64,000 bases of DNA, taken from NCBI RefSeq assembly GCF_030145185.1, contig NZ_JAQYWB010000026.1, positions 7,454 through 71,453 of the forward strand, in the 5' to 3' direction. This stretch comes from Desulfoluna sp. (GTDB taxonomy: Bacteria > Desulfobacterota > Desulfobacteria > Desulfobacterales > Desulfolunaceae). Of the stretch, positions 2,953-64,000 are shown piece by piece. The position numbers and the translations under genes are program-made. Numbering within the stretch: position 1 is the first letter of the stretch; each line of letters opens with the position of its first letter. Below the pieces are notes generated by a model. That model did no database searches. It was not told the DNA's origin and worked only from the letters and a program-made list of their open reading frames with translations.

Positions 2953-3026
2953 AAGCATGCCTCCGGCGGCCCTGCCGGGGGCCAAACTTTTGAAAATTTT
3001 TTATGGACTGGGTTTGACAAACAGGC

Positions 3027-5093: not shown

Positions 5094-5392
5094 GCCTCAG
5101 GCGGCCCTGCCGGGGGCTAAACTTTTGAAAAGTTCAACAAACAGGTTTTACAAAATAACCTTGATTCAATTTCATCTTAAAAGCGGATGTGATTTCCCCC
5201 GAGGAATCCGCCGACGCAAAAGCCTCCGGCGTGACCAGTCCGCATAGGCCCATGTCTATGCGTCACCACTTACCCCACGTCAATGGGCTACGGCGCGACA
5301 AGCGATCCGTCTTCGCCTGTGGCTACGCCGTGACATGGGGGCAAAACGCATTCGTAACCTGATTTCAAGGTGGCCCACCTTGCCGCCGAAGA
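5094..5392 (+). repeat. composite repeat element, copy A (left arm + core + right arm)
   Basis: Shares left arm GCCTCAGGCGGCCCTGCCGGGGGCTAAACTTTTGAAAAG, the core GGCGGATGTGATTT...GACATGGGGGCAAAACGCAT and right arm CTTTCAAGGTGGCCCACCTTGCCGCCGAAG with copies at 18206 and 57336. Confidence 0.85.
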
Positions 5393-5460: not shown

Positions 5461-6687
5461 ATGCACCTTTTTAACGCCATTGCCATATTGATCACCCTGG
5501 CCGCCCTCTTCAGTTTCATCAACGACCGATTCATCAAGCTTCCCGCCACCATCGGCATCATGATGATTGCCATGCTGATGTCTTTGGGGCTGATTGTGCT
5601 GGCCCCCTTCGGGCTCGATCCGGGAGTGGCCAAGCTCATCGCCGGCATCGACTTCAACACCACCCTCATGGTGGGGATGCTCTCCTTTCTTCTCTTTGCC
5701 GGTGCCCTTCACGTGGAGATGGATGACCTCCTGGAAAACAAGGTGGAAATCGCTCTCTTCGCCACGGTGGGCGTGGTGGCCGCCACCTTCATCACCGGAA
5801 CCCTGGTTTATTACGCGGCAGGGCTTATGGGCCTCACCCTGGATTACATCCACTGCCTCCTCTTCGGTGCCCTCATCTCCCCCACCGACCCGGTGGCAGT
5901 GCTGGGCATCCTGAAGTTGACGGGCGCTCCCAAAAGCCTGGAGGTCAAGATCACCGGGGAGTCCCTTTTCAACGACGGCATCGGGGTGGTGGTCTTTCTG
6001 ACCATCCTGGAGATCGCCACAGGCGAGGCCGAACTCTCCGCCGGTCATGTGGCGGCCCTTTTCGCCACAGAGGTGGCCGGTGGCCTGATTCTGGGCCTCG
6101 TCACCGGCTGGATCGCCTACCTCTTCCTCTCCAAGGTGGACAACTACCAGGTGGAGGTCCTCATCACCCTGGCCCTGGTCACCGGCGGCTATGCTTTGGC
6201 CCTGGCCCTTCATCTCTCCGGCCCCATCGCCATCGTCATCGCGGGCCTTCTCATCGGCAACCGAGGCCGGGCCTTTGCCATGAGCGACAAAACCCGAGAG
6301 CATTTAGATACCTTCTGGGAACTCCTCGACGAAACCTTAAACGCCGTCCTCTTCCTTCTCATTGGCTTTGAAATCCTGATCCTCACCGTCAGCAGACGCT
6401 TCCTGGGCCTGGGCATGCTGGCCTTCTTCATCGTCCTGCTCGCCCGATTCACCTCTCTTGCCGGTGCCCTGGCCATCCTGAAACCCTTCCGCACCTTTGC
6501 CAAAGGTGCCCTCCCCATCCTCACCTGGGGCGGCCTCCGGGGAGGCATCTCCGTAGCCCTGGCCCTCTCCCTGCCCGCCTCCATCCCGGTCCGGGACGGC
6601 CTCGTCACCATGACCTACGTCGTGGTGATCTGCTCCATCGTCATTCAAGGCCTCACCATCGGCAAACTGATTAAGCGCCATCATTAA
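5461..6687 (+). CDS. Na+/H+ antiporter, CPA1 (NhaP-type)
   Basis: 408 aa polytopic protein with the GESLFNDG signature. Confidence 0.85.
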
Positions 6688-6694
6688 AAAACAT

Positions 6695-6778
6695 GCCTCC
6701 GGCGGCAAGGTGAGCCACCTTGAAAGCGGGTTGCAAATGCACTTTGTCCCTCGTTCCTCAGGCCAAATTGCATTTGCC
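6695..6778 (-). repeat. solo right-arm repeat unit with extended hairpin (GCAAATGCA...TGCATTTGC)
   Basis: GCCTCCGGCGGCAAGGTGAGCCACCTTGAAAGCGGGTTGCAAATGC..., starting 4 nt after the antiporter stop. Confidence 0.8.
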
Positions 6779-8068: not shown

Positions 8069-8650
8069 ACGCCTTCTTCGATTAAATGAATGCCATGCAT
8101 GGTGAAGGGAACCCACCGCGCTGCACGAAAAATTGAAACGATGTGCCCCCGGCGGTCAAGGCGCAGCCCCCCTTTGCTCTTCGGCCAGGAAAAGCAAAGA
8201 AAACTGCCGTTTGCACAGGGGTTTTGATTCAATGAAAAAGAAGCACAAACACAAAAAAAACCGTGATCAAAACCCTGGGCCCTGGAACCGTAACCATGCC
8301 CCAACGGCTCATTATTTACTACCTATTCGCCCTTAAGTATACCCGCATAAATGGATACAATGTATTTTGCGCGTCTACCGACCCCTTTAAATAATCGCCC
8401 AGGCAGGTTCGCCCGAGGCAGATTTCTTCTAAAAAAGGAGGCGCCCATGCTTTGGAACGAACACTCAATCACGTGAACAAAAAAAATGCCTCTGGCAAGT
8501 CGCTTTTTGAAAGGGTGCCGGCTGCGCCTTGGTAAAAACCGCAAAACCTTTTTGGTTGCACAACCTCTCTTGCCCGCCCTGGGACAGGCAAGAGAGGCCA
8601 TGATACGTGAAGGTTACCGCAAGCGTCGGGCTCTCGAAATATTATTTAAA

Positions 8651-8702
8651 GCCTGTTTATCAAACGGTTCGAACGTTTGGCCCCCGGCAGGGCCGCCGGA
8701 GG
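8651..8702 (-). repeat. solo left-arm repeat unit directly after the acyl-CoA dehydrogenase stop
   Basis: Reverse complement of GCCTCCGGCGGCCCTGCCGGGGGCCAAACGTTCGAACGTTTG; the hairpin is preserved by compensatory changes relative to CAAACTTTTGAAAAGTTTG. Confidence 0.8.
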
Positions 8703-10519: not shown

Positions 10520-10563
10520 GAATCGGTTCCTTTCTTTGTTGTTAAGAGCGGGTAAGAAAGCCT

Positions 10564-10618
10564 GCCTCCGGCGGCGAGGTGAGCCACCTCGAAAGCGGGT
10601 TGCGGTTAAATGCATTCG
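10564..10618 (-). repeat. solo right-arm repeat unit
   Basis: GCCTCCGGCGGCGAGGTGAGCCACCTCGAAAGCGGGTTGCGG... Confidence 0.75.
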
Positions 10619-14982: not shown

Positions 14983-15126
14983 CCTCCGGCGGCCCTGCCG
15001 GGGGCCAAACTTTTACCCGATTTTATAAAGACGGGTTTGACAAACAGGTCTTAAAAAACAATCTTGGGTAAATCTAAAGCGCATTTGCAACCTGCTTTCA
15101 AGGTGGCACACCTTGCCGCCGGAGGC
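14983..15126 (+). repeat. short composite repeat (left arm joined to right arm, core absent) with flanking auxiliary units
   Basis: GCCTCCGGCGGCCCTGCCGGGGGCCAAACTTTT ... GCATTTGCAACCTGCTTTCAAGGTGGCACACCTTGCCGCCGGAGGC. Confidence 0.8.
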
Positions 15127-15198
15127 ACGTTTTTGCCCCCGACTTTAGCCATAGAAGGCTGCTTTTCATGATCTGAACAGTGACAATAGAAGGAACGC

Positions 15199-16305: not shown

Positions 16306-16348
16306 GGGAAAGAAAGGTCAAAGGGAAAAAAATATCAAAGGGGAAAAA

Positions 16349-16970
16349 GCCTCCGGCGGCAAGGTGTGCCACCTTGAAAGCAGGTTGCGAATGCGTGGAG
16401 GCCGTCTTTATCCATGCGCTTTCGGGGCATTCGCTCGAAGGATGAAATATAACGACCGTCACGGCAGGAGACACCGATTTCATTCTTCCGAAAAACCTGG
16501 GAGCGGGGCCGTTCTGCTGAACGGCCCTCACCGCCTGAGTGATTCCCGTTAAAGCCATGAGTTCCCTGTTCATCCCAGGCCCCAATATCACCCACACCGG
16601 TGAGATTACGGCGGCATCGTAGGGTGGGCAAAGCGCGAATAATGTTCGTTCCTAAGACCCCATGCCCTTGTGGCACACGGTGCAGGGCCTTAAACTCTGC
16701 GCGAATGCGAACGCATTGCCGCCACAAATGACGACACCCGATGCGCATTCGCAAACCCGCTTTCGAGGAGGTTCACCTCGCCGCCGGAGTTATTCCGGTT
16801 AATATCAACCCATGAGTTGATACGGAAGCACCGGTAACGTATGCGCTTGCGACACACGAGGCACCCCCTCACCCTTCACGCGGACGCGGACGCGGGGTGC
16901 CGCAAGTACCGATAGCCGGGGAGCATTCGCAAACCCGCTTTCAAGGTGGCGTCACCTTGCCGCCGGAGGC
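16349..16970. repeat. cluster of three right-arm repeat units (16349-16440 reverse, 16700-16788 forward, 16921-16970 forward) in a 650-bp gene-free gap
   Basis: Each unit contains GCGAATGC...GCATTCGC and CAAGGTGNGCCACCTTG hairpins. The last unit provides the PatB stop. Confidence 0.8.
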
Positions 16971-18109
16971 ATGCTTTTTAGCGTTTCGATCGCTTTTTCC
17001 ATGCGATCCAAGGCCTCTTGCAGGACAGCTCTTGTGCAGGCGAAATTAAGCCGGAGCCATCCGGGGGCGTCGAAGTGGGCACCATCTGAGAGCCCCACGC
17101 CGCCTGCTTCAAAAAAAGCGGCGGGGTCTTTCACCCCGAGATCCCTGGCATCCATCCAGATGAGATAGGTGGCTTCCGGGAGGAGGGGTTTCAGCCCTTT
17201 CATGGCGGCAAGGCGCTTAAAGGCGTAGTCACGGTTTTCTTTGAGATACGATAAAACCTCTTTGAGCCAGGGGCTGCCGTGGATGTAGGCGGCCGTGGCC
17301 CCTTCGTAGCCCATGAGGTTCACATAAGGAACGATCCCGTCCATGGCGGCTTTAAAGCGGGTGCGAAGCGTTTCGTCTTCGATAATGGCCATGGCGCAGC
17401 CAAGGCCGGGGATGTTAAAGGTCTTGCTCGGGGCCATGAGGGTGACGGTACGGGCGGCCGCGACTTTTGAAAGGGAGGCGGTGGGGATGTGTTTTCTGGA
17501 CTCGTCCATCACCAGGTCCGCGTGAATCTCATCGGAGCAGATCAGGATATCCCGCTCCTCACAGAAGTCGACGATGCCGGAGAGTTCTTCTTTCGTCAAC
17601 AGGGTTCCACCGGGATTATAAGGAGAGCAGAGCATGAGAAGTTTTGTCTCGGGGGTGACCTGGGCTTCCAGGACATCTCGGTTGATCACAAGCCGCCCGT
17701 TCTCCACGGGCAGAGACACCTTCACCATCTCTCGCCGGGCGTTTTTCGCCGCCGATAAAAAAGGCGGGTAGGCGGGGCTGGGCACGGCGATGGCCTCTGT
17801 TTCTCCCACGAGCCGCGCTGCCACATTAAATCCCGTCACCACCCCGGGAATAAAAAGGAGACAATCCCTCTCCACCTTCCAGCCAAAATGTTTCTCAATG
17901 TGCCCCAGCGCAGCCTCATACAAGGCATCACTGGGAAGCGTATACCCGTAGACAGGATGTCCCGCGCGCCGAACCAGCGCCGTGGTCACGGCCTCGGGTG
18001 CTGCAAAATCCATATCCGCGACCCAAAGGGGCAGCACATCCTCCCCCTTAAACCACTCCCACTTCACACTCGACGTCCCTTTTCGGTCAACGGGCCGGTC
18101 AAAATTCAT
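16952..18109 (-). CDS. PatB/MalY-family C-S lyase (cystathionine beta-lyase-type aminotransferase, class I/II)
   Basis: 385 aa with N-terminal MNFDRPVDRKGTSSVKW typical of PatB/MalY and the PLP-lysine region SKTFNIPGLG. Confidence 0.85.
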   Translation of the reverse strand: MNFDRPVDRKGTSSVKWEWFKGEDVLPLWVADMDFAAPEAVTTALVRRAGHPVYGYTLPSDALYEAALGHIEKHFGWKVERDCLLFIPGVVTGFNVAARLVGETEAIAVPSPAYPPFLSAAKNARREMVKVSLPVENGRLVINRDVLEAQVTPETKLLMLCSPYNPGGTLLTKEELSGIVDFCEERDILICSDEIHADLVMDESRKHIPTASLSKVAAARTVTLMAPSKTFNIPGLGCAMAIIEDETLRTRFKAAMDGIVPYVNLMGYEGATAAYIHGSPWLKEVLSYLKENRDYAFKRLAAMKGLKPLLPEATYLIWMDARDLGVKDPAAFFEAGGVGLSDGAHFDAPGWLRLNFACTRAVLQEALDRMEKAIETLKSMPPAAR

Positions 18110-18205: not shown

Positions 18206-18578
18206 GTAACTGTTCAGCTTACGCCTCCGGCGGCCCTGCCGGGGGCCAAACTTTTGAAAAGTTTGACAAACAGGCTTTTATGAGGAAACCCAATCAATTC
18301 ATGTTTGAAGGCGGATGTGATTTGACCCGAGGGATCCGCCTACGCAAAAGCCTTCGGCGTGACAAGTCCGCCTACGCAAAAGCCTCCGGCGTGACAAGTC
18401 CGCCTACGCCCATGTCTATGCGCCACCATTCGACCAACGTCAATGGGCTACGGCGCGACAAGCGATCCGTCTTCGCCTGCGGCTACTCCGTGACATGGGG
18501 GCAAAACGCATCCGCAATCTGCTTTCAAGGTGGCACACCTTGCCGCCGGAGGCTGCTTTTCATGAGCTGAATAGTTAC
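18206..18578 (+). repeat. composite repeat element, copy B (full length, with outer inverted repeat GTAACTGTTCAGC / GCTGAATAGTTAC)
   Basis: Inner TIR GCCTCCGGCGGC (18223) ... GCCGCCGGAGGC (18553). An internal 31-nt unit is duplicated relative to copies A and C. Confidence 0.9.
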
Positions 18579-22962: not shown

Positions 22963-22974
22963 GGGCCTGGAAAG

Positions 22975-23090
22975 CAAGCCTCCGGCGGCGAGGTGTGCCA
23001 CCTCGAAAGCGGGTTGCGAATGCTCCCAGCCCTCGTTCCTCGGGCTGATCACATTCGCTGATGGGCTACGCCCGTGGCCGGTCAGTGCTC
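22975..23090 (-). repeat. solo right-arm repeat unit with extended hairpin
   Basis: GCCTCCGGCGGCGAGGTGTGCCACCTCGAAAGCGGGTTGCGAATGCTCC...CATTCGC. Confidence 0.8.
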
Positions 23091-23159: not shown

Positions 23160-23252
23160 CCGAACTCGCATGGTAACTATTCAGCTTACGCCTCCGGCGG
23201 CCCTGATAGGAGGCTAAACCTCCGAAAAGCTTGATAAAAAAATCTTAAAAAA
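23160..23252 (+). repeat. solo left-arm repeat unit with outer GTAACTATTCAGC
   Basis: GTAACTATTCAGCTTACGCCTCCGGCGGCCCTGATAGGAGGCTAAACCTCCGAAAAGCTTGA... Confidence 0.7.
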
Positions 23253-23562
23253 CTCTTCTTGAATGCATTTTGTTTTAAATACGAATGTGATTTAATCAAA
23301 GTTATTTTGCAAAATCTATTTGAGCACAGTCCTAATTTTATATCGAAAGGGCCTTTTTGTGTTTCCGGTCGCATTCCGGCCTGCGTATTTTTTGATTATC
23401 AAAGCCGGAAATTGAGCTCAAACACGAGAAAGCATCTATGAAAATTCATGGCAAGGGCTACCCTTGCCGTGTGAACGCAGGGTTCTGTGTGAGGGCTGAA
23501 GAAGGGCTGATACCCCTGCTCGATTTTGTCCGGTTAAATTCCGGCTATTTTTGTCTTGACCA

Positions 23563-25894: not shown

Positions 25895-26060
25895 CCTGAA
25901 CGTAAGGCGGATGTGATTTGCCCCGAGGTACGAAGGGCGAAGCACATCCGCCTTTAAAACAAAATTCATCCGAAATGAATTTTTAAGACCTGTTTGTTAA
26001 ACTTTTCAAAGCTTTAGCCCCGACAGGGCCGCCGGAAGAATAATCTGAATAGTTACAAAA
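25895..26060 (-). repeat. partial composite repeat, reverse orientation (core fragment + left arm)
   Basis: GGCGGATGTGATTTGCCCCGAGG ... reverse complement of GCCTCCGGCGGCCCTGTCGGGGCTAAAGCTTTGAAAAGTTTAACAAACAGG. Confidence 0.7.
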
Positions 26061-26123: not shown

Positions 26124-27266
26124 CTACAAAGCTTGAATCCACACAAAGCAACTCGCCCAGCGGGTGTCGCGCAGCTGTTCCAAAAGATCGCCGTAGCTGA
26201 AAGTGCGTCCGTCGTTCTCGGACAAGGGGGTGACAGAGATGGGGGCGTGGGGAGTCCCGGAATGTATTGGCTCAGGATCCCATCGGACAAGAAGCATATC
26301 CCGGCTTCCGTGAGCGGAGTCAGGGATCGCTTCAAGCCCTTCGTAAAAATTTTCATCCGGGAACGTAAGGGGAGAAAGCGAGTCCACAGGCCGATTCGTC
26401 ATCAGAGAGAGCACCTGCCCCGACTCGGAGACATGATAAAGGGAAAGAGAACCGGTGGGCTCAGGCGGAGAGAGATGAACCTGATAAGGGCTACCGGACG
26501 CCAGAAGGCCCTCGGGGGTGACCCCTATGCGCAAACCCTTATTCTCAGTCTTTTCCACAAAGCAGAGACGAAACCACGCATCGGTGTCGACAGGATAAAC
26601 CGCAGGGTCAACCCGAAGGGTCCACCCCCCGTGTCGCCTGACCAGATGAAATTGCGAGGGAAAGACCCCGGCGGTCGCCAGCTCCCGTGCGAGGGGAAGG
26701 GCCGCCTTATAGCCCTCGCCAAACGCCAGGGGCCGTTTTAAGAGGTGTTCACGGTCCGCAGCCACCTTTTGAAAAAGGGTGCGGTTGTCGTAACCCAGGG
26801 CCACATAATACCGACCCGAAGCCCGGGTCCGCTTCACCATCGTAAGATGACTCAAGCTGACCCGGCTCTCCAGATCCACACGAAAGTGAGAAGAAAACAT
26901 ACGGCCTGAAGCGCCCCGCTCCGCAACCACCTCACCGGTAGAGTGAACGCTCACCCGAAGAGCCTCGGCAATCTCCCGCGACGCCTCCGACCGGGCCGAG
27001 GCCATGCTGTCTCCCTGCCCGTATCCCACCAGCACATGCGCAGGTGCCCCCACATCCCTTGCCACATACCACCCCGGCCCGCCACACCCCTGAAACAAAA
27101 ACAAAAGCAAAAATATGCCTGCAGAGAAATGCCTCCGGCGGCCCTGCCGGGGGCCAAACTTTTGATCCGCCTTCGCCCGAGGGCTACGGCGCGACAAGAA
27201 AGTTTGACAAACAGGTTTTAAAAACTGATTTTTCGATTTCGAGATAAAATCATTTCGACTCGGCAT
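26124..27266 (-). CDS. putative lipoprotein (LPP20/DUF4384-like), start uncertain
   Basis: Signal peptide with lipobox (RRRHFSAGIFLLLFLFQGC). The N-terminal ~45 codons of the track ORF lie inside a repeat element (27126-27266); an alternative TTG start exists near 27197. Confidence 0.6.
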   Translation of the reverse strand: MPSRNDFISKSKNQFLKPVCQTFLSRRSPRAKADQKFGPRQGRRRHFSAGIFLLLFLFQGCGGPGWYVARDVGAPAHVLVGYGQGDSMASARSEASREIAEALRVSVHSTGEVVAERGASGRMFSSHFRVDLESRVSLSHLTMVKRTRASGRYYVALGYDNRTLFQKVAADREHLLKRPLAFGEGYKAALPLARELATAGVFPSQFHLVRRHGGWTLRVDPAVYPVDTDAWFRLCFVEKTENKGLRIGVTPEGLLASGSPYQVHLSPPEPTGSLSLYHVSESGQVLSLMTNRPVDSLSPLTFPDENFYEGLEAIPDSAHGSRDMLLVRWDPEPIHSGTPHAPISVTPLSENDGRTFSYGDLLEQLRDTRWASCFVWIQAL

Positions 27267-27310
27267 GTGCGTTCACCTTAAAAAAATGTAACCATTCAGC
27301 TTCACCCTGT
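27126..27310 (+). repeat. left-arm repeat unit plus auxiliary units, overlapping the 5' end of the lipoprotein gene
   Basis: GCCTCCGGCGGCCCTGCCGGGGGCCAAACTTTTGA...GTTTGACAAACAGG ... GTAACCATTCAGC. Confidence 0.75.
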
Positions 27311-27559
27311 CTCTGGCGGGTCTCTTTTTGAAAAAAATTTCGCAAAAACGTTTCAGCCCGTAGGGTGCGGCTCCCGCACCGTTCAACGTCACGCAAACCA
27401 CCGGACCCGTCTCAACACTTATCACGAAGTGCGGCGTTGCAGGTTTATCAGACGTTAAGCGGTGCGCACGGCGCACCCTACATTTCACATCGACACGGTT
27501 ACCAAAGGACAGACCCTTTATACGGTTTTCTTCCTCATCGACCCTGGCGCATCGGTGTG

Positions 27560-27770
27560 AGGCGATTGGGTGGCATGAGCTGAACAGTTACCATTGTGCA
27601 CACTCACCGCTCATACACTTGCGACGCATGATGCATTCCCTTGCCTGTCGCGCGAATGCGTACGCATTTCAGCCCGGAATGACGACACCCAAATCGCATT
27701 CGCAAACCCGCTTTCAAGGTGGTTTTTGCTACAGTGGCTTCGCCACCTTGCCGCCGGAGGCATGTTTTTA
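27560..27770 (+). repeat. right-arm repeat unit with outer GCTGAACAGTTAC and auxiliary GGTGGTTTTTGCTACAGTGGCTTCGCCACCTTGCCGCCGGAGGC
   Basis: Seen in sequence. Ends 7 nt before the caspase-gene stop. Confidence 0.75.
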
Positions 27771-27776
27771 CCCCCG

Positions 27777-29528
27777 CTATTCAAAGCGCAATCTCATGTG
27801 CAGGTTTCCCCTGGCTGTAGGCTCCTGGAGTTGTGTGCCGCCCCGGCTCCGGCTGATGCGGCGGGTTTGTTGGGAAACCCGTTGGTAAAGGCTCTCCAGG
27901 GTGTCGTGATCGTTCATGAGCTCTTTCATGAGAAAATAGCTAAAGAGACGATGGCCTTTTTCGGGGTACATGTTGGAGAACTGGCGATCGGTACCCGCGG
28001 TGATTACGGCCATGCGGCGGTCATCGAACCCGATGGCTTTTGGTACCAGCCGTGTGGCGGCCCGGCCGTTCCCGAAAACCGAGGTCCCATCGGCCACACC
28101 GGTAAAACAGCTGTCCATAAAGACCACGATCTCGGCGGCCCGGCTTTGGCTCAGGGTCTGAAAGAAGGTATCGATCCGGAAAAAAGGTGACTCGTGAATA
28201 AAATCCGGGGCCTGATCCCGGGCCAGGAGATACGGAGCGCCCCCGTCTTTAAGTGAAGGGAGGCCGTGACCGCTGTAGTAGACGTAGATGCGATCGCCTT
28301 CGCCCACATCACGCAGGAGAAACCGGAGCTCATCTTGAATGGAGGCAGCGGTGGCCGGAAAGGTCCGCCCTTTGAGCCCCTTGATCTCTGTGGTTCCGTC
28401 ATCATTCAGCAAAAAAACGTTTTCGGCCGGGACGCCCAGGCGGTTCATGGCCACCCGGGTAAAAAGCTCGGCGCTGCGTCTTGAGTAGGCAATGGGGCTG
28501 GCCTTGTCGTAAGCCTCGATGCCCATGGCAAAGAGCCAGGTGGTGAGATGGGGATCGAGAGGGCGACTCGATTTCAAACGGCCGGGAAGGTCATCCTCAT
28601 AAGAAAGGGGGTCTTTTTCATTCCGGTCATTCGAAGCGCCAAGGGCCGCTTTGGCCAGCACGCGCTCGCCGACCGATGCCAGGGGCACCTTTTTTTCAAA
28701 GGTTTTCCACCCTGGCTCGTCCAGGGCCAGAAAGTCAGATCGAAGATCCGGGGAGAGCTTGAGAAAAGAGGGACGCCGTTCAGATCCCAGGGTCTTAAAG
28801 GCCATGACCTCCTCAGGTTTGAGGCCAAATTCCCGGCGATACCAGGGCATCAGATCAATGGACACAGCAGCCGCCCCACCGCCGCATGCGGCGGTGACGT
28901 AAAGGGTCCCCGATTCGAGCAGGGTGTCGGTCAAAACGGGTCGATACCGACCGTTTCCATAAGCCCTTATCGCCACCGGACGTCTCTGCTCATCCAAAAC
29001 CGTCACGAGGGTTTCATCCGACGCATCAAAGGTAAGGATTTTTCCGGTTTCATCGTTTATTTGACGGCGATCCAACACCTCATAGTCCACAGGTGCCCAG
29101 AGGTAGCCCATCAAAAGCCAGGACCTCAGGTGGCGGTCGTAGAGTCGTTGCCGCATCGCCTCTTCCCCGTCGGGATCTCCCCACCCGGTAAAGAGCCTCT
29201 TGACGCACCAGACGGGAGTCACCACGAGCCCGGCCACCGTCGAGAGAGCGGTCCCCAGGATCAACCGGGCATCCGGTTCGTAATCGTAAATGTCCAGACG
29301 AGTGACCTCTTTGGCCTGGACCTGAATTTTTGCCACCCGTTCAGGGACATGTTTTTCCGTCATGACCCGAAAGCCCTCGTCTTCAGGGATCACGGTCACC
29401 TGGCAGGCGGCCAGGGCCAAGCCCTGGGCGGCCCCCCAGGGTTCGCTCTCATATTCAAAGGAAAAACGCCTGCCGGAGCATGAATTAAAAAGAAAAAGAA
29501 CAATCAGTATGGGCAAAACACGTTTCAC
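27777..29528 (-). CDS. caspase-domain (peptidase C14) lipoprotein with ~330-aa N-terminal domain of unknown function
   Basis: N-terminal signal peptide/lipobox (MKRVLPILIVLFLFNSC). C-terminal caspase His and Cys dyad contexts YYSGHG and FMDSCFTG. Confidence 0.75.
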   Translation of the reverse strand: MKRVLPILIVLFLFNSCSGRRFSFEYESEPWGAAQGLALAACQVTVIPEDEGFRVMTEKHVPERVAKIQVQAKEVTRLDIYDYEPDARLILGTALSTVAGLVVTPVWCVKRLFTGWGDPDGEEAMRQRLYDRHLRSWLLMGYLWAPVDYEVLDRRQINDETGKILTFDASDETLVTVLDEQRRPVAIRAYGNGRYRPVLTDTLLESGTLYVTAACGGGAAAVSIDLMPWYRREFGLKPEEVMAFKTLGSERRPSFLKLSPDLRSDFLALDEPGWKTFEKKVPLASVGERVLAKAALGASNDRNEKDPLSYEDDLPGRLKSSRPLDPHLTTWLFAMGIEAYDKASPIAYSRRSAELFTRVAMNRLGVPAENVFLLNDDGTTEIKGLKGRTFPATAASIQDELRFLLRDVGEGDRIYVYYSGHGLPSLKDGGAPYLLARDQAPDFIHESPFFRIDTFFQTLSQSRAAEIVVFMDSCFTGVADGTSVFGNGRAATRLVPKAIGFDDRRMAVITAGTDRQFSNMYPEKGHRLFSYFLMKELMNDHDTLESLYQRVSQQTRRISRSRGGTQLQEPTARGNLHMRLRFE

Positions 29529-35261: not shown

Positions 35262-35306
35262 CGAATGCGCATTCGCTTTCAAGGTGGCACACCTTGCCGC
35301 CGGAGG
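35262..35306 (+). repeat. solo right-arm repeat unit
   Basis: CGAATGCGCATTCGCTTTCAAGGTGGCACACCTTGCCGCCGGAGGC. Confidence 0.8.
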
Positions 35307-35420
35307 CACGCTTTTGACTTTTCCTCTGAGCCCTCTGTGGCTCTGTGGTTCATTTAACCTTGACCATAGAGGGCTCTTTTATTCATGTTCACATCATCGT
35401 CCCATCACAGAGTTTGACTT

Positions 35421-57335: not shown

Positions 57336-57660
57336 GCCTCCGGCGGCCCTGCCGTGGGCTAAACTTTTGCCTGATTTTATAAAGATGGGTTTAACCAACA
57401 GGTCTTAAATACATAGTTCAGATTTACGTCGACCCAAATCCGGATGTGATTTGACCCGAGGAATCCGCCTACGCCCATGTCTATGCGCCACCATTCGACC
57501 AACGTCAATGGGCTACGGAGCGACAAGCGATCCGTCTTCGCCTGCGGCTACGCCGTGACATGGGGGCAAAACGCATCCGCAACCTGCTTTCAAGGTGTTT
57601 TTGCCTAAATGGCTTCGCCACCCTTACCGCCGGAGGCTATTGGGGGAGCTGGATAGTTAT
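57336..57660 (+). repeat. composite repeat element, copy C (full length)
   Basis: TIR GCCTCCGGCGGC (57336) ... CCGCCGGAGGC (57636), then outer GCTGGATAGTTAT. The core matches copies A and B over ~150 nt. Confidence 0.9.
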
Positions 57661-62674: not shown

Positions 62675-63220
62675 GAAGATCACACCTTTGTTCAGAATTA
62701 ATGGAATCCGCAGCAACCCTGCTGCCCAGAATGTTAGGATGGCATCGCCAAAAATCGAACGGACGCCATCACACTCAAACATGCCGCCTTCCGTCCACCG
62801 TTGACCCCACGATGCTGTGATGAAGAGCGTTGACCTTTTAAAGAATGTAACCCGTGAAAATGGTGGCTCACCATGGAAAAAGGAGGTGTCATAAAGCTAC
62901 AAACGAAATGAAATTCAGAGAACGAAGAAAGCGATTCATTGTTGATATGCAACCAAAAGCCATCCAAAACTTACCTTGTTATTATAACACTAACCACGTT
63001 TCAATGTAAGTTCAATCTAATGACAAGGCCACCTGCCGCCCCCCACGCGATCTTCATTACCCACCGTATTTACTGGTAAATTACGAGGAGACACGACACC
63101 CACGCCAACCGGACAGACCTGTCACCCGGAGGCGGGCCAGCTCACCCACCCTTCTATCATGCCTTAATTAAACAAAAAAACCTCTGATCACTCAATCTAC
63201 AAGGACCTTTATAAAAAGAT

Positions 63221-63348
63221 TCCGGAGGCGTCCTACTCTCCCGCGCAGCTGCCCGTGCAGTGCCATCAGCGCAAAAGAGCGGGCCTTATCTCATGACTTG
63301 GCCGTGTTCGGAATGGGAACGGGTGTGACCTCTTTGCAATCACCACCG
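63221..63348 (-). rRNA. rrf: 5S ribosomal RNA (copy adjacent to degenerate 23S fragment; possibly itself degenerate)
   Basis: The reverse complement reads ...CACCCGTTCCCATTCCGAACACGGCCAAGTCATGAG...GATGGCACTGCACGGG...GCGGGAGAGTAGGACGCCTCCGGA, matching 5S helices and loops. Confidence 0.75.
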
Positions 63349-63427
63349 AAAAACGGTATATGCGTTTTTCGGATCATTCAATCAGGATATGGATTCAATA
63401 AAGCGCTCAGCATCTGTGTAGTAAGAT

Positions 63428-63930
63428 TGTGGCTAAGCCTCACGACCAATGAGTACCGGTAAACTGAACACATTGCTGTGCTTACACATCCGGCCTATCA
63501 ACCTCGTAGTCTTCGAGGTGTCTTCAGTCCGGCACTCAATTTCATGCTCAAACATGTAGCATTGACAGAGACATTACACGTCTCCTTCAACATACTGCTT
63601 AAGCGCAAAATTGAGTACCGGAAGGGATATCTAATCTTGAAGGGGGTTTGCAGCGATGATGCTTTCAGCGGTTATCCTTTCCGAACCGTAGGATGGGCAA
63701 AGCGCGAAGCGTGCCCATCTTTTACTTCCTGAAAACGCGACAACAGGAACACCAGAGATTCGTCCATTCCGGTCCTCTCGTACGAGGAACAGATCTCCTC
63801 ACCCAGTTTTATTATCTGGCCTCCGCCCACGAAAGATAGGGACTAAACTGTCTCATGACCTTTCATAAATCAGGCAAACCCAGCTCACGGACCACTTTAA
63901 TTGGCGAGCCGTCACCGCTGTATTTCGTAC
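63428..63930 (-). pseudogene. degenerate fragment of the 23S rRNA 3' end (domain V/VI incl. sarcin-ricin loop), not a full 23S gene
   Basis: The reverse complement aligns to GGCT-CGCCAATTAAAGTGG...GAGCTGGGTTT...GTCATGAGACAGTT...AGTACGAGAGGACCGG...TGAAAGCATC...GTTGATAGGCCGG...GTGAGGCTTA. The universally conserved A-loop and GGGUUUAGAACGUCGUGAGACAG segments are altered, and several insertions are present. It begins immediately after a terminator and is only ~500 nt long. Confidence 0.55.
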
Positions 63931-63933
63931 ATA

Positions 63934-63974
63934 CAAAACAAAAAAGGCTCTTGATGATTAAATCATCAAGAGCC
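63934..63974 (-). terminator. rho-independent terminator downstream of the 5S copy that runs off the window
   Basis: On the minus strand, GGCTCTTGATGATTTAATCATCAAGAGCC followed by TTTTTTGTTTTG. Confidence 0.65.
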
Positions 63975-63986
63975 TTTATAAAAAAA

Positions 63987-64000
63987 TCCGGCGGCGTCCT
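63987..64000 (-). rRNA. rrf: 5S ribosomal RNA, 3'-terminal 14 nt only (gene continues beyond window)
   Basis: TCCGGCGGCGTCCT matches the 3' end of the 5S at 63221-63234 with one difference. Confidence 0.4.

Follow-up and report, generated by a model that had tools for sequence, protein, structure and literature searches.

What would a lipid-anchored caspase homologue do in the bacterial envelope, and with which partner would it act? The question is raised by two neighboring genes in a 64,000-nucleotide (nt) stretch of Desulfoluna sp. DNA (assembly GCF_030145185.1, contig NZ_JAQYWB010000026.1, positions 7,454 to 71,453 of the forward strand), hereafter the window. Caspase homologues are widespread in bacteria, yet for hardly any of them is a substrate, a partner, or a physiological role known. 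An earlier note, made from the letters of the window, had pointed to two open reading frames (ORFs) on one strand, and both are present on the minus strand. Gene A (27777 to 29528), delimited by its ORF and a Pfam match, encodes a 583-residue, lipoprotein-type member of the caspase family (Peptidase C14). Gene B (26124 to 27266), delimited by its ORF, alignments, profiles, and structure, encodes a 380-residue lipoprotein with LPP20 and DUF4384-like domains. As described below, A and B are a two-gene unit that is kept in many unrelated bacteria, an association that is strong but not absolute. We consider it somewhat better than even, with a probability of roughly 55%, that the pair constitutes an envelope protease together with its cognate regulator, anchor, or substrate.

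Gene A starts with GTG, with GGAG 7 nt upstream, and its product is 100% identical to an NCBI entry named "caspase family protein [Desulfoluna sp.]". The Pfam profile Peptidase_C14 (PF00656) matched residues 335 to 567 with 28.2 bits, above its gathering score of 21.4. Taken with alignments, Foldseek comparisons, and sequence matches in the PDB, this delimits a caspase/metacaspase-type catalytic domain at residues 330 to 583 (27780 to 28541, minus strand), in agreement with the C-terminal caspase that had been read from the contexts YYSGHG and FMDSCFTG. The catalytic dyad consists of His421 in YYSGHG (nt 28266 to 28268) and Cys474 in DSCFTG (nt 28107 to 28109). Conservation of these two residues had been set beforehand as the point on which the assignment would stand or fall, and both are invariant in 11 close homologues, in 5 distant ones (42 to 55% identity), and in all 83 metagenomic caspase domains compared. 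Seven further residues are fixed in the same 83 domains (D412, D472, F475, G477, D480, R527, and F529), and basic residues are kept at 493 and 497, in a flexible loop after the catalytic cysteine.

An AlphaFold (AF2) model of A, with a mean predicted local distance difference test (pLDDT) score of 66 and loops of low pLDDT, was compared with the PDB by Foldseek. It matched legumain, procaspase-1, Yca1, a Candida metacaspase, and MALT1 (E values of 2e-7 to 1e-4), as well as plant metacaspases, and the clan-CD matches from Foldseek and the PDB sequence search also included gingipain K and a peptide asparaginyl ligase. By sequence, the closest solved proteins are Geobacter GSU0716 (PDB 3BIJ) and metacaspases, and the motifs DSC[F]TG and SGHG are likewise of the metacaspase type. 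The NCBIfam model NF047832 (caspase_w_EACC1) gave A only 48.1 bits, below its cutoff of 140, and no EACC1 partner is present. From the C14 match above threshold, the invariant dyad, and the fold and sequence matches, we read A as a C14 protease of the metacaspase/orthocaspase type whose catalytic machinery is intact, with predicted proteolytic activity.

All 83 caspase domains keep the Asp of the D-S-C motif, which is compatible with specificity for a basic (Arg/Lys) P1 residue, the rest of the S1 pocket not being reliably assignable. When the sequences were aligned by eye, a family-wide motif, S-[KR]-R-S-A-E (residues 349 to 354 of A, about 28467 to 28484), apparently replaces the metacaspase segment G-C-x-N-D-A, which includes the second Asp of S1. 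By this equivalence, Ser352, which follows Arg or Lys, apparently stands at the position of that Asp, and the motif may therefore mark an altered S1 pocket. Two relatives from Elusimicrobia (P0019 and P0020) carry S-D-A-E at this position.

The N-terminus of A carries a signal peptide and lipobox (residues 1 to 17, LFNS-C17; 29478 to 29528, minus strand), recognized from alignment, hydropathy, and the AF2 model, which places a helix at residues 4 to 15. The lipobox cysteine, Cys17, is invariant in 11 homologues. With a signal peptide and this cysteine, A is a predicted lipoprotein, as had been proposed, though position -2 of the lipobox is Asn in A and Thr, Ser, or Ala in the orthologues. An Asn at -2 is atypical by the PROSITE lipobox rule. 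Export is a trait of the whole family: a hydropathy heuristic called a signal-like N-terminus in 53 of 55 full-length family caspases, and the other two have a signal-like stretch upstream of the first Met. Since a signal peptide or lipobox is present in practically every family caspase, the protease of this family is predicted to act outside the cytoplasm.

The first 330 residues of A matched no Pfam or NCBIfam family, so that the earlier note was right to find nothing recognizable there. They are not the single uncharacterized domain that it had supposed. In tblastn searches this region matched only Desulfoluna-like sequences, and it is a variable module specific to the Desulfoluna lineage. 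Using the AF2 model and an alignment of 11 homologues, we divided the N-terminal half into five parts, and the structure prediction that had been suggested for this region returned a beta segment, a hydrophobic hairpin, an Ig-like sandwich, and a helical domain. The beta segment (residues 21 to 75) follows the lipobox and is succeeded by a conserved hydrophobic helical hairpin (residues 88 to 147; 29088 to 29267, minus strand; alignment, Kyte-Doolittle hydropathy, and AF2), which is the best-conserved stretch of the N-terminal half. Its hydrophobic helix (88 to 110) bears a small-xxx-small motif (G92, S96, and G100); Lys-Arg comes next, then an amphipathic helix and a second, short hydrophobic stretch (136 to 147). 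AF2 places helices at 88 to 114 and 122 to 139, both with pLDDT below 50. A similar arrangement is seen in P0012 and partly in P0017. Downstream lies an Ig-like beta-sandwich with a helical domain (residues 148 to 300; 28629 to 29087, minus strand; AF2, Foldseek, and alignment), modeled at pLDDT 85 to 90, with the sandwich at 148 to 225 and the helical region at 227 to 297. The sandwich gave weak Foldseek matches to filamin, Ig-like, and LdtMt2 Ig-like domains (E values of 0.08 to 0.5). This part varies, and the short homologues P0009 to P0011 have a deletion of it.

The Kyte-Doolittle peak of 1.78 at residues 89 to 107 makes a membrane helix in A likely, so that two topologies come into consideration: a hairpin, by which the chain would come back to the periplasm, or a single pass. 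The hairpin is favored on three grounds. Two relatives whose caspase domains are 44% identical to that of A, P0013 and P0016, are lipoproteins in which no other strongly hydrophobic stretch is seen; both hydrophobic segments are present in P0012; and signal-like N-termini are found in 53 of the 55 proteins mentioned above. Among 24 caspases picked by a lipobox search, a second strongly hydrophobic segment occurred in only 2.

Variability of the N-terminal region holds for the family as a whole. In place of the Desulfoluna module, other family caspases carry a WD40 propeller, Sel1/TPR repeats, Lcl_C (DUF1566), or ankyrin-like repeats (the latter recognized by eye), and these domains differ even among caspase domains joined by single linkage at 70% identity or more. 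At three loci, tandem caspase paralogues with different N-termini share one B: L055 (805 to 8190), L075 (3472 to 10339), and L094 (5038 to 9209). Locus L075 also has a second copy of B on the opposite strand, and an Elusimicrobia locus (L013:8001-10564) encodes two caspase lipoproteins in tandem.

The product of gene B also combines a signal peptide with a lipobox, LFLFQG-C61 (Cys codon at nt 27084 to 27086), and is a predicted lipoprotein by the same reasoning as A. Cys61 is followed by a conserved P-x-W-Y motif, and an L-x-G-C lipobox is found in B and most of its homologues. The lipoprotein call made for B in the earlier note therefore stands, with a correction: residues 1 to 46 of the ORF are largely read-through of a dispersed repeat, whose copy at 27129 to 27231 (plus strand) is translated as residues 12 to 46 and supplies the basic n-region of the signal peptide. 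The homologue P0024, on a metagenome contig, has the same read-through at its 5' end. The ATG at 27266, with AAGGTGA upstream, is the putative start codon, and there is no ATG or GTG between it and the lipobox. The NCBI annotation (P0023) instead starts at Met88 and gives a protein of 293 residues, in which the signal peptide is lost.

The mature part of B comprises an LPP20-type alpha/beta domain (about residues 75 to 160; 26787 to 27044, minus strand) and a C-terminal DUF4384-like beta-sandwich (about residues 245 to 377; 26136 to 26534, minus strand) with the motif GYLSLYHVSESGQV...PD..Y.GLEA. In profile searches, 39 of 40 homologues matched LPP20 at an E value of 0.1 or less (best, 4.6e-15) and 25 of the 40 matched DUF4384 (best, 4.2e-7). 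A structure model built from an 11-sequence alignment predicts an N-terminal domain with the LPP20-like alpha/beta fold and a C-terminal beta-sandwich. An exhaustive search with the B profile collected 710 cluster representatives at 50% identity (E value of 1e-3 or less). Nearly all of the best 150 are 310 to 370 residues long, with the profile matched over most of their length. From the 710 representatives and the uniform length and coverage of these best 150, B is a member of a sizeable lipoprotein family with essentially one architecture. A similarity of B to macroglobulin domains, considered as evidence for an inhibitor, was dropped because generic Ig-like folds score alike. As a separate observation, some B-family genes with no caspase in the available DNA lie directly downstream of a nucleotidyltransferase/HEPN pair or a RelE-like gene (L101:51-1861, L102:76-1886, and L100:593-1914).

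Is the adjacency of A and B more than an accident of one genome? In Desulfoluna it is not independent evidence, because the whole neighborhood is syntenic there: the block helicase-A-B-leuB recurs in D. limicola, in D. spongiiphila, and on three related metagenome contigs. The pair was also found in unrelated contexts. At L007/L008, an 859-residue caspase lipoprotein in an ammonium-transporter/chemoreceptor context is followed by a B homologue (31% identity, E value of 4e-49). In Ferrimonas balearica the gene order is reversed, and an LPP20-family homologue of B (E value of 9e-21) lies 20 nt upstream of a 789-residue caspase. To these we can add a metagenome scan with an alignment of the caspase half, which yielded 80 loci at 36 to 77% identity, in which B was sought by B-profile search of the six-frame ORFs. 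A B homologue was present in 49 of the 80. Single-linkage grouping at 70% identity or more sorted the caspases into 34 lineages, of which 28 had B in at least one locus, and the GC content of the loci ranged from 25 to 58%. Most copies of B lie downstream on the same strand (42 of 52), and 28 of these 42 are separated by no more than 25 nt or overlap.

These results answer the call for co-occurrence in other genomes, and the earlier proposal that the co-oriented lipoprotein genes form a functional pair gains from their recurrence across lineages, mostly in translationally coupled form. Clustering of all neighboring ORFs found no third recurring gene around the caspases; only the A and B families recur. 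In the reverse direction, a caspase was encoded directly upstream in 2 of 4 sampled representatives of the B family. A scan of genome contigs with the B alignment returned four loci of the Desulfoluna family only, the derived peptide patterns being too narrow, and a further protein search with the B profile added one, the Ferrimonas protein. Membership of A and B in a defense system was considered as well and rejected: PADLOC gave the locus a generic caspase match only, and the Desulfoluna neighborhood consists of housekeeping genes.

Considering the observed gene structure, catalytic residues, export signals, domain content, and cross-lineage co-occurrence, we favor the reading of an envelope protease with B as its cognate regulator, anchor, or substrate. 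A would be an exported, lipid-anchored, orthocaspase-like cysteine protease of the C14 type, in which the catalytic C-terminal half is conserved and the N-terminal half serves as a lineage-specific targeting or anchoring region; in Desulfoluna, the latter would comprise the beta segment, a membrane-associated helical hairpin, and the Ig-like and helical domains, with the protease domain placed in the periplasm. B would be a lipoprotein encoded in a tightly coupled operon with A and produced together with it. The LPP20 domain of B may act as an envelope scaffold or anchoring module, and its DUF4384-like sandwich would provide in trans what many bacterial caspase homologues have in cis. Most likely, B would bind the protease domain of A. 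It might keep the enzyme in a latent state, determine its position, or serve as the first protein that it cleaves.

The link between DUF4384 and peptidase C14 domains, which the earlier note had mentioned, is backed by the literature. Csx30 proteins are substrates of the caspase-like protease Csx29, and in some of them DUF4384 forms the C-terminal domain; in cyanobacterial orthocaspases, DUF4384 is reported as one of the accessory domains. That DUF4384 is fused to caspases is taken here from these reports and not from our own structural matches. Because DUF4384 occurs in cis with caspases elsewhere and B is a coupled, exported neighbor, the simplest reading is that B would associate physically with the catalytic domain. 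LPP20-type proteins are described as outer-membrane lipoproteins that bind other envelope lipoproteins, with which a scaffolding or anchoring role for the N-terminal domain of B fits.

Several observations weigh against this reading. The LPP20/DUF4384-like character first assigned to B holds at the level of the family, whereas B alone stays below the thresholds: it scored 16.6 to 17.1 bits against LPP20 (PF02169; E value of 0.011), for which the gathering score is 25.9, and had no match to DUF4384 (PF14326). Even within the family, most DUF4384 matches stay just under the gathering score of 27, the scores sampled being 17 to 24.5 bits. The AF2 models are of medium confidence only, with mean pLDDT of 66 and 74. 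No B was found within the available DNA for 6 of the 34 caspase lineages. Conversely, 2 of the 4 sampled B genes had no caspase in the available DNA; one of them comes from a contig of 2.5 kb, and HEPN/MNT and FecR-like genes flank the other. Here, A and B are 510 nt apart, with repeat insertions between them, so that their co-transcription in Desulfoluna is putative. Segment 88 to 110 of A, followed by Lys-Arg, could be a single transmembrane pass, in which case the caspase domain would be cytoplasmic.

Which other relations between A and B would account for these data? A gene placed directly downstream of a protease gene and translationally coupled to it is typical of protease/inhibitor and toxin/immunity pairs, and B might accordingly be neither substrate nor anchor but a dedicated inhibitor or "immunity" lipoprotein, which would silence the exported protease until its release, as staphostatins do for staphopains. 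The tandem caspase paralogues with one common B (L075 and L055) would suit such a role. No bait region or thioester is seen in B, however, some family caspases have no B nearby, and the fusion of DUF4384 in cis to active orthocaspases would be odd for a pure inhibitor; we therefore regard this as a tentative and rather unlikely explanation. The single-pass topology leads to another proposal, in which the caspase domain of Desulfoluna A would be cytoplasmic, and the periplasmic residues 18 to 87, together with B, would sense an envelope signal that triggers intracellular proteolysis in transmembrane signaling or cell death. The 21-residue hydrophobic helix at 89 to 109, preceded by acidic residues and followed by Lys-Arg, has the features of an out-to-in pass; its small-xxx-small motif is conserved, and the second hydrophobic stretch is too short for a normal membrane span. 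Against it stand the plain lipoproteins P0013 and P0016, the simple export of nearly all family members by the hydropathy heuristic (53 of 55), and P0012, whose two segments are consistent with a hairpin back to the periplasm. Moreover, B is conserved also with caspases that lack a transmembrane segment, so that the domain it partners with must be extracytoplasmic. A cytoplasmic caspase domain is thus unlikely in our view.

The clan-CD matches to legumain, gingipain K, and a peptide asparaginyl ligase would also allow A to be a transpeptidase or maturase that processes or attaches envelope proteins (compare PorU, GPI8, and legumain-type ligases), with B as its outer-membrane docking subunit. 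The envelope location of the enzyme is in keeping with this, as is the nature of LPP20-type proteins as outer-membrane-associated scaffolds that bind lipoproteins. The motifs of A, though, are of the metacaspase type and not those of C13 or C25, and the surroundings contain neither a conserved gene that would be a candidate for a substrate nor a sorting-signal family. The variable N-terminal interaction domains are also unlike sortase-like enzymes, for which, to our knowledge, such domains are not a known feature. This role seems very improbable. Hardly credible is the simplest alternative, that A and B merely lie side by side in a block syntenic within Desulfoluna, with nothing to link them in function. 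Conservation of the helicase-A-B-leuB block as a whole and the distance between the two genes in the window would be expected from it, but it is already contradicted by the recurrence of the pair in unrelated contexts and 28 of 34 lineages and by the tight spacing elsewhere, where the genes are often 0 to 25 nt apart or overlap.

A bolder extension of the protease-partner reading, which we put forward as speculative and doubtful, is that the module is an extracytoplasmic, caspase-based surveillance system, the periplasmic counterpart of the cytoplasmic sensor-plus-caspase immune modules. The exchangeable N-terminal domains (WD40, Sel1, the C-type-lectin-like Lcl_C, ankyrin-like, and Ig-like) would recognize molecules that are foreign or damaged, whether in the periplasm or on the cell surface. 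The protease would thereby be activated, and cleavage of the LPP20/DUF4384 lipoprotein would then lead to an envelope response or cell death. Compatible with this are the shuffling of the N-terminal domains, the tandem paralogues that share one B (L075 and L055), and the HEPN/MNT and RelE-like genes beside some B genes.

How does the pair compare with systems already described? Bacterial orthocaspases and other prokaryotic metacaspases, such as GSU0716 (PDB 3BIJ) and the cyanobacterial proteins, share with A the SGHG and D-S-C-x-[ST]-G motifs, the His-Cys dyad, the metacaspase fold, and variable accessory domains (WD40, TPR/Sel1, and lectin-like). In contrast to them, the subfamily of A is exported or lipid anchored, has its accessory domains at the N-terminus, and is accompanied by a separate, conserved lipoprotein gene; it also differs from metacaspases in the apparent Ser352 in place of the second S1 Asp, by the alignment made by eye. 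Orthocaspases with a fused DUF4384 likewise combine a caspase domain with a DUF4384-type beta-sandwich, whereas here the DUF4384-like domain is on a second polypeptide, joined to LPP20 and a lipid anchor. Craspase (type III-E CRISPR, Csx29/Csx30) resembles the pair in having a caspase-fold protease and a separately encoded partner, which carries DUF4384 in some lineages. The resemblance stops there: A and B are exported, the catalytic domain of A is of the C14 type and Csx29 is TPR-CHAT, and the neighborhood contains no CRISPR locus, Cas7-11, TPR-CHAT, RpoE, or Csx31. Helicobacter pylori Lpp20 (HP1456) and HP1454 share with B the lipoprotein anchor, and LPP20 proteins bind envelope lipoproteins, but the H. 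pylori proteins have neither a DUF4384-like domain nor a caspase neighbor. In terms of gene arrangement, a further parallel lies in the staphopain-staphostatin operons, in which a secreted cysteine protease is co-transcribed with a beta-barrel inhibitor, the protease gene being directly followed by that of the small, beta-rich partner. Those proteases belong to clan CA and A to clan CD, and B, unlike the cytoplasmic staphostatins, is exported.

In published surveys of prokaryotic caspase homologues, proteins with signal-like N-termini are noted in passing, and this partner is not mentioned. No description of the A-B pair came up in full-text literature searches that covered DUF4384, LPP20 combined with caspase, and orthocaspase combined with lipoprotein or periplasm. 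Thus, a bacterial caspase homologue with accessory domains is already known, and the exported two-gene arrangement with an LPP20/DUF4384 lipoprotein appears to be undescribed. The unit is compact and testable, consisting of one protease and one lipoprotein in very different bacteria, with a strictly conserved core and interchangeable targeting domains. It offers a direct route to the first substrate or regulator of a prokaryotic caspase, and it could assign a function to DUF4384 and the LPP20 fold and reveal a role for caspase-type proteolysis in the bacterial envelope.

The spacer between A and B (27267 to 27776) had been described as repeat rich and 500 bp long. The repeats are there and enlarge it to 510 nt, but they are dispersed elements, present at more than 10 other places in the window, and are unrelated to the pair. 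One family, at 27650 to 27776, begins right after the caspase stop codon and has about ten other copies in the window (near 16699 to 16773, 16923 to 16978, 57567 to 57637, 15076 to 15141, 6687 to 6746, 16340 to 16395, 22971 to 23023, 35290 to 35315, 18536 to 18560, and 10550 to 10581), as well as many in intergenic sites of other Desulfoluna and Desulfolunaceae genomes. The family read through in B (repeat family 1) is about 70 to 120 nt long, with the core CCTCCGGCGGCCCTGCCGGGGGCTAAACTTTTGAAAAGTTTAACAAACAGGTTTTAAAAA, and is probably REP-like (repetitive extragenic palindromic) or MITE-like (miniature inverted-repeat transposable element). Two inverted copies flank B, the one read through at its 5' end and another just downstream (25940 to 26056, minus strand), and about eight more sites lie in the window, including 5097 to 5194, 23173 to 23292, 18206 to 18274, 8635 to 8700, 2962 to 3000, and 57339 to 57409; translated copies were found at D. 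limicola intergenic sites (L001:18229-18327 and 5539-5607). The spacer also contains a 40-nt inverted repeat (27360 to 27481). A role of the spacer as a regulatory element was rejected, since this inverted repeat is not conserved in related Desulfoluna loci and the other repeats are dispersed genome-wide. Rfam gave no match in or near the A-B pair, and promoter and terminator scans of the region stayed at background level. The only Rfam matches were to rRNA at the edge of the window (63220 to 64000, minus strand), where a 5S gene lies together with the 3' end of a 23S gene.

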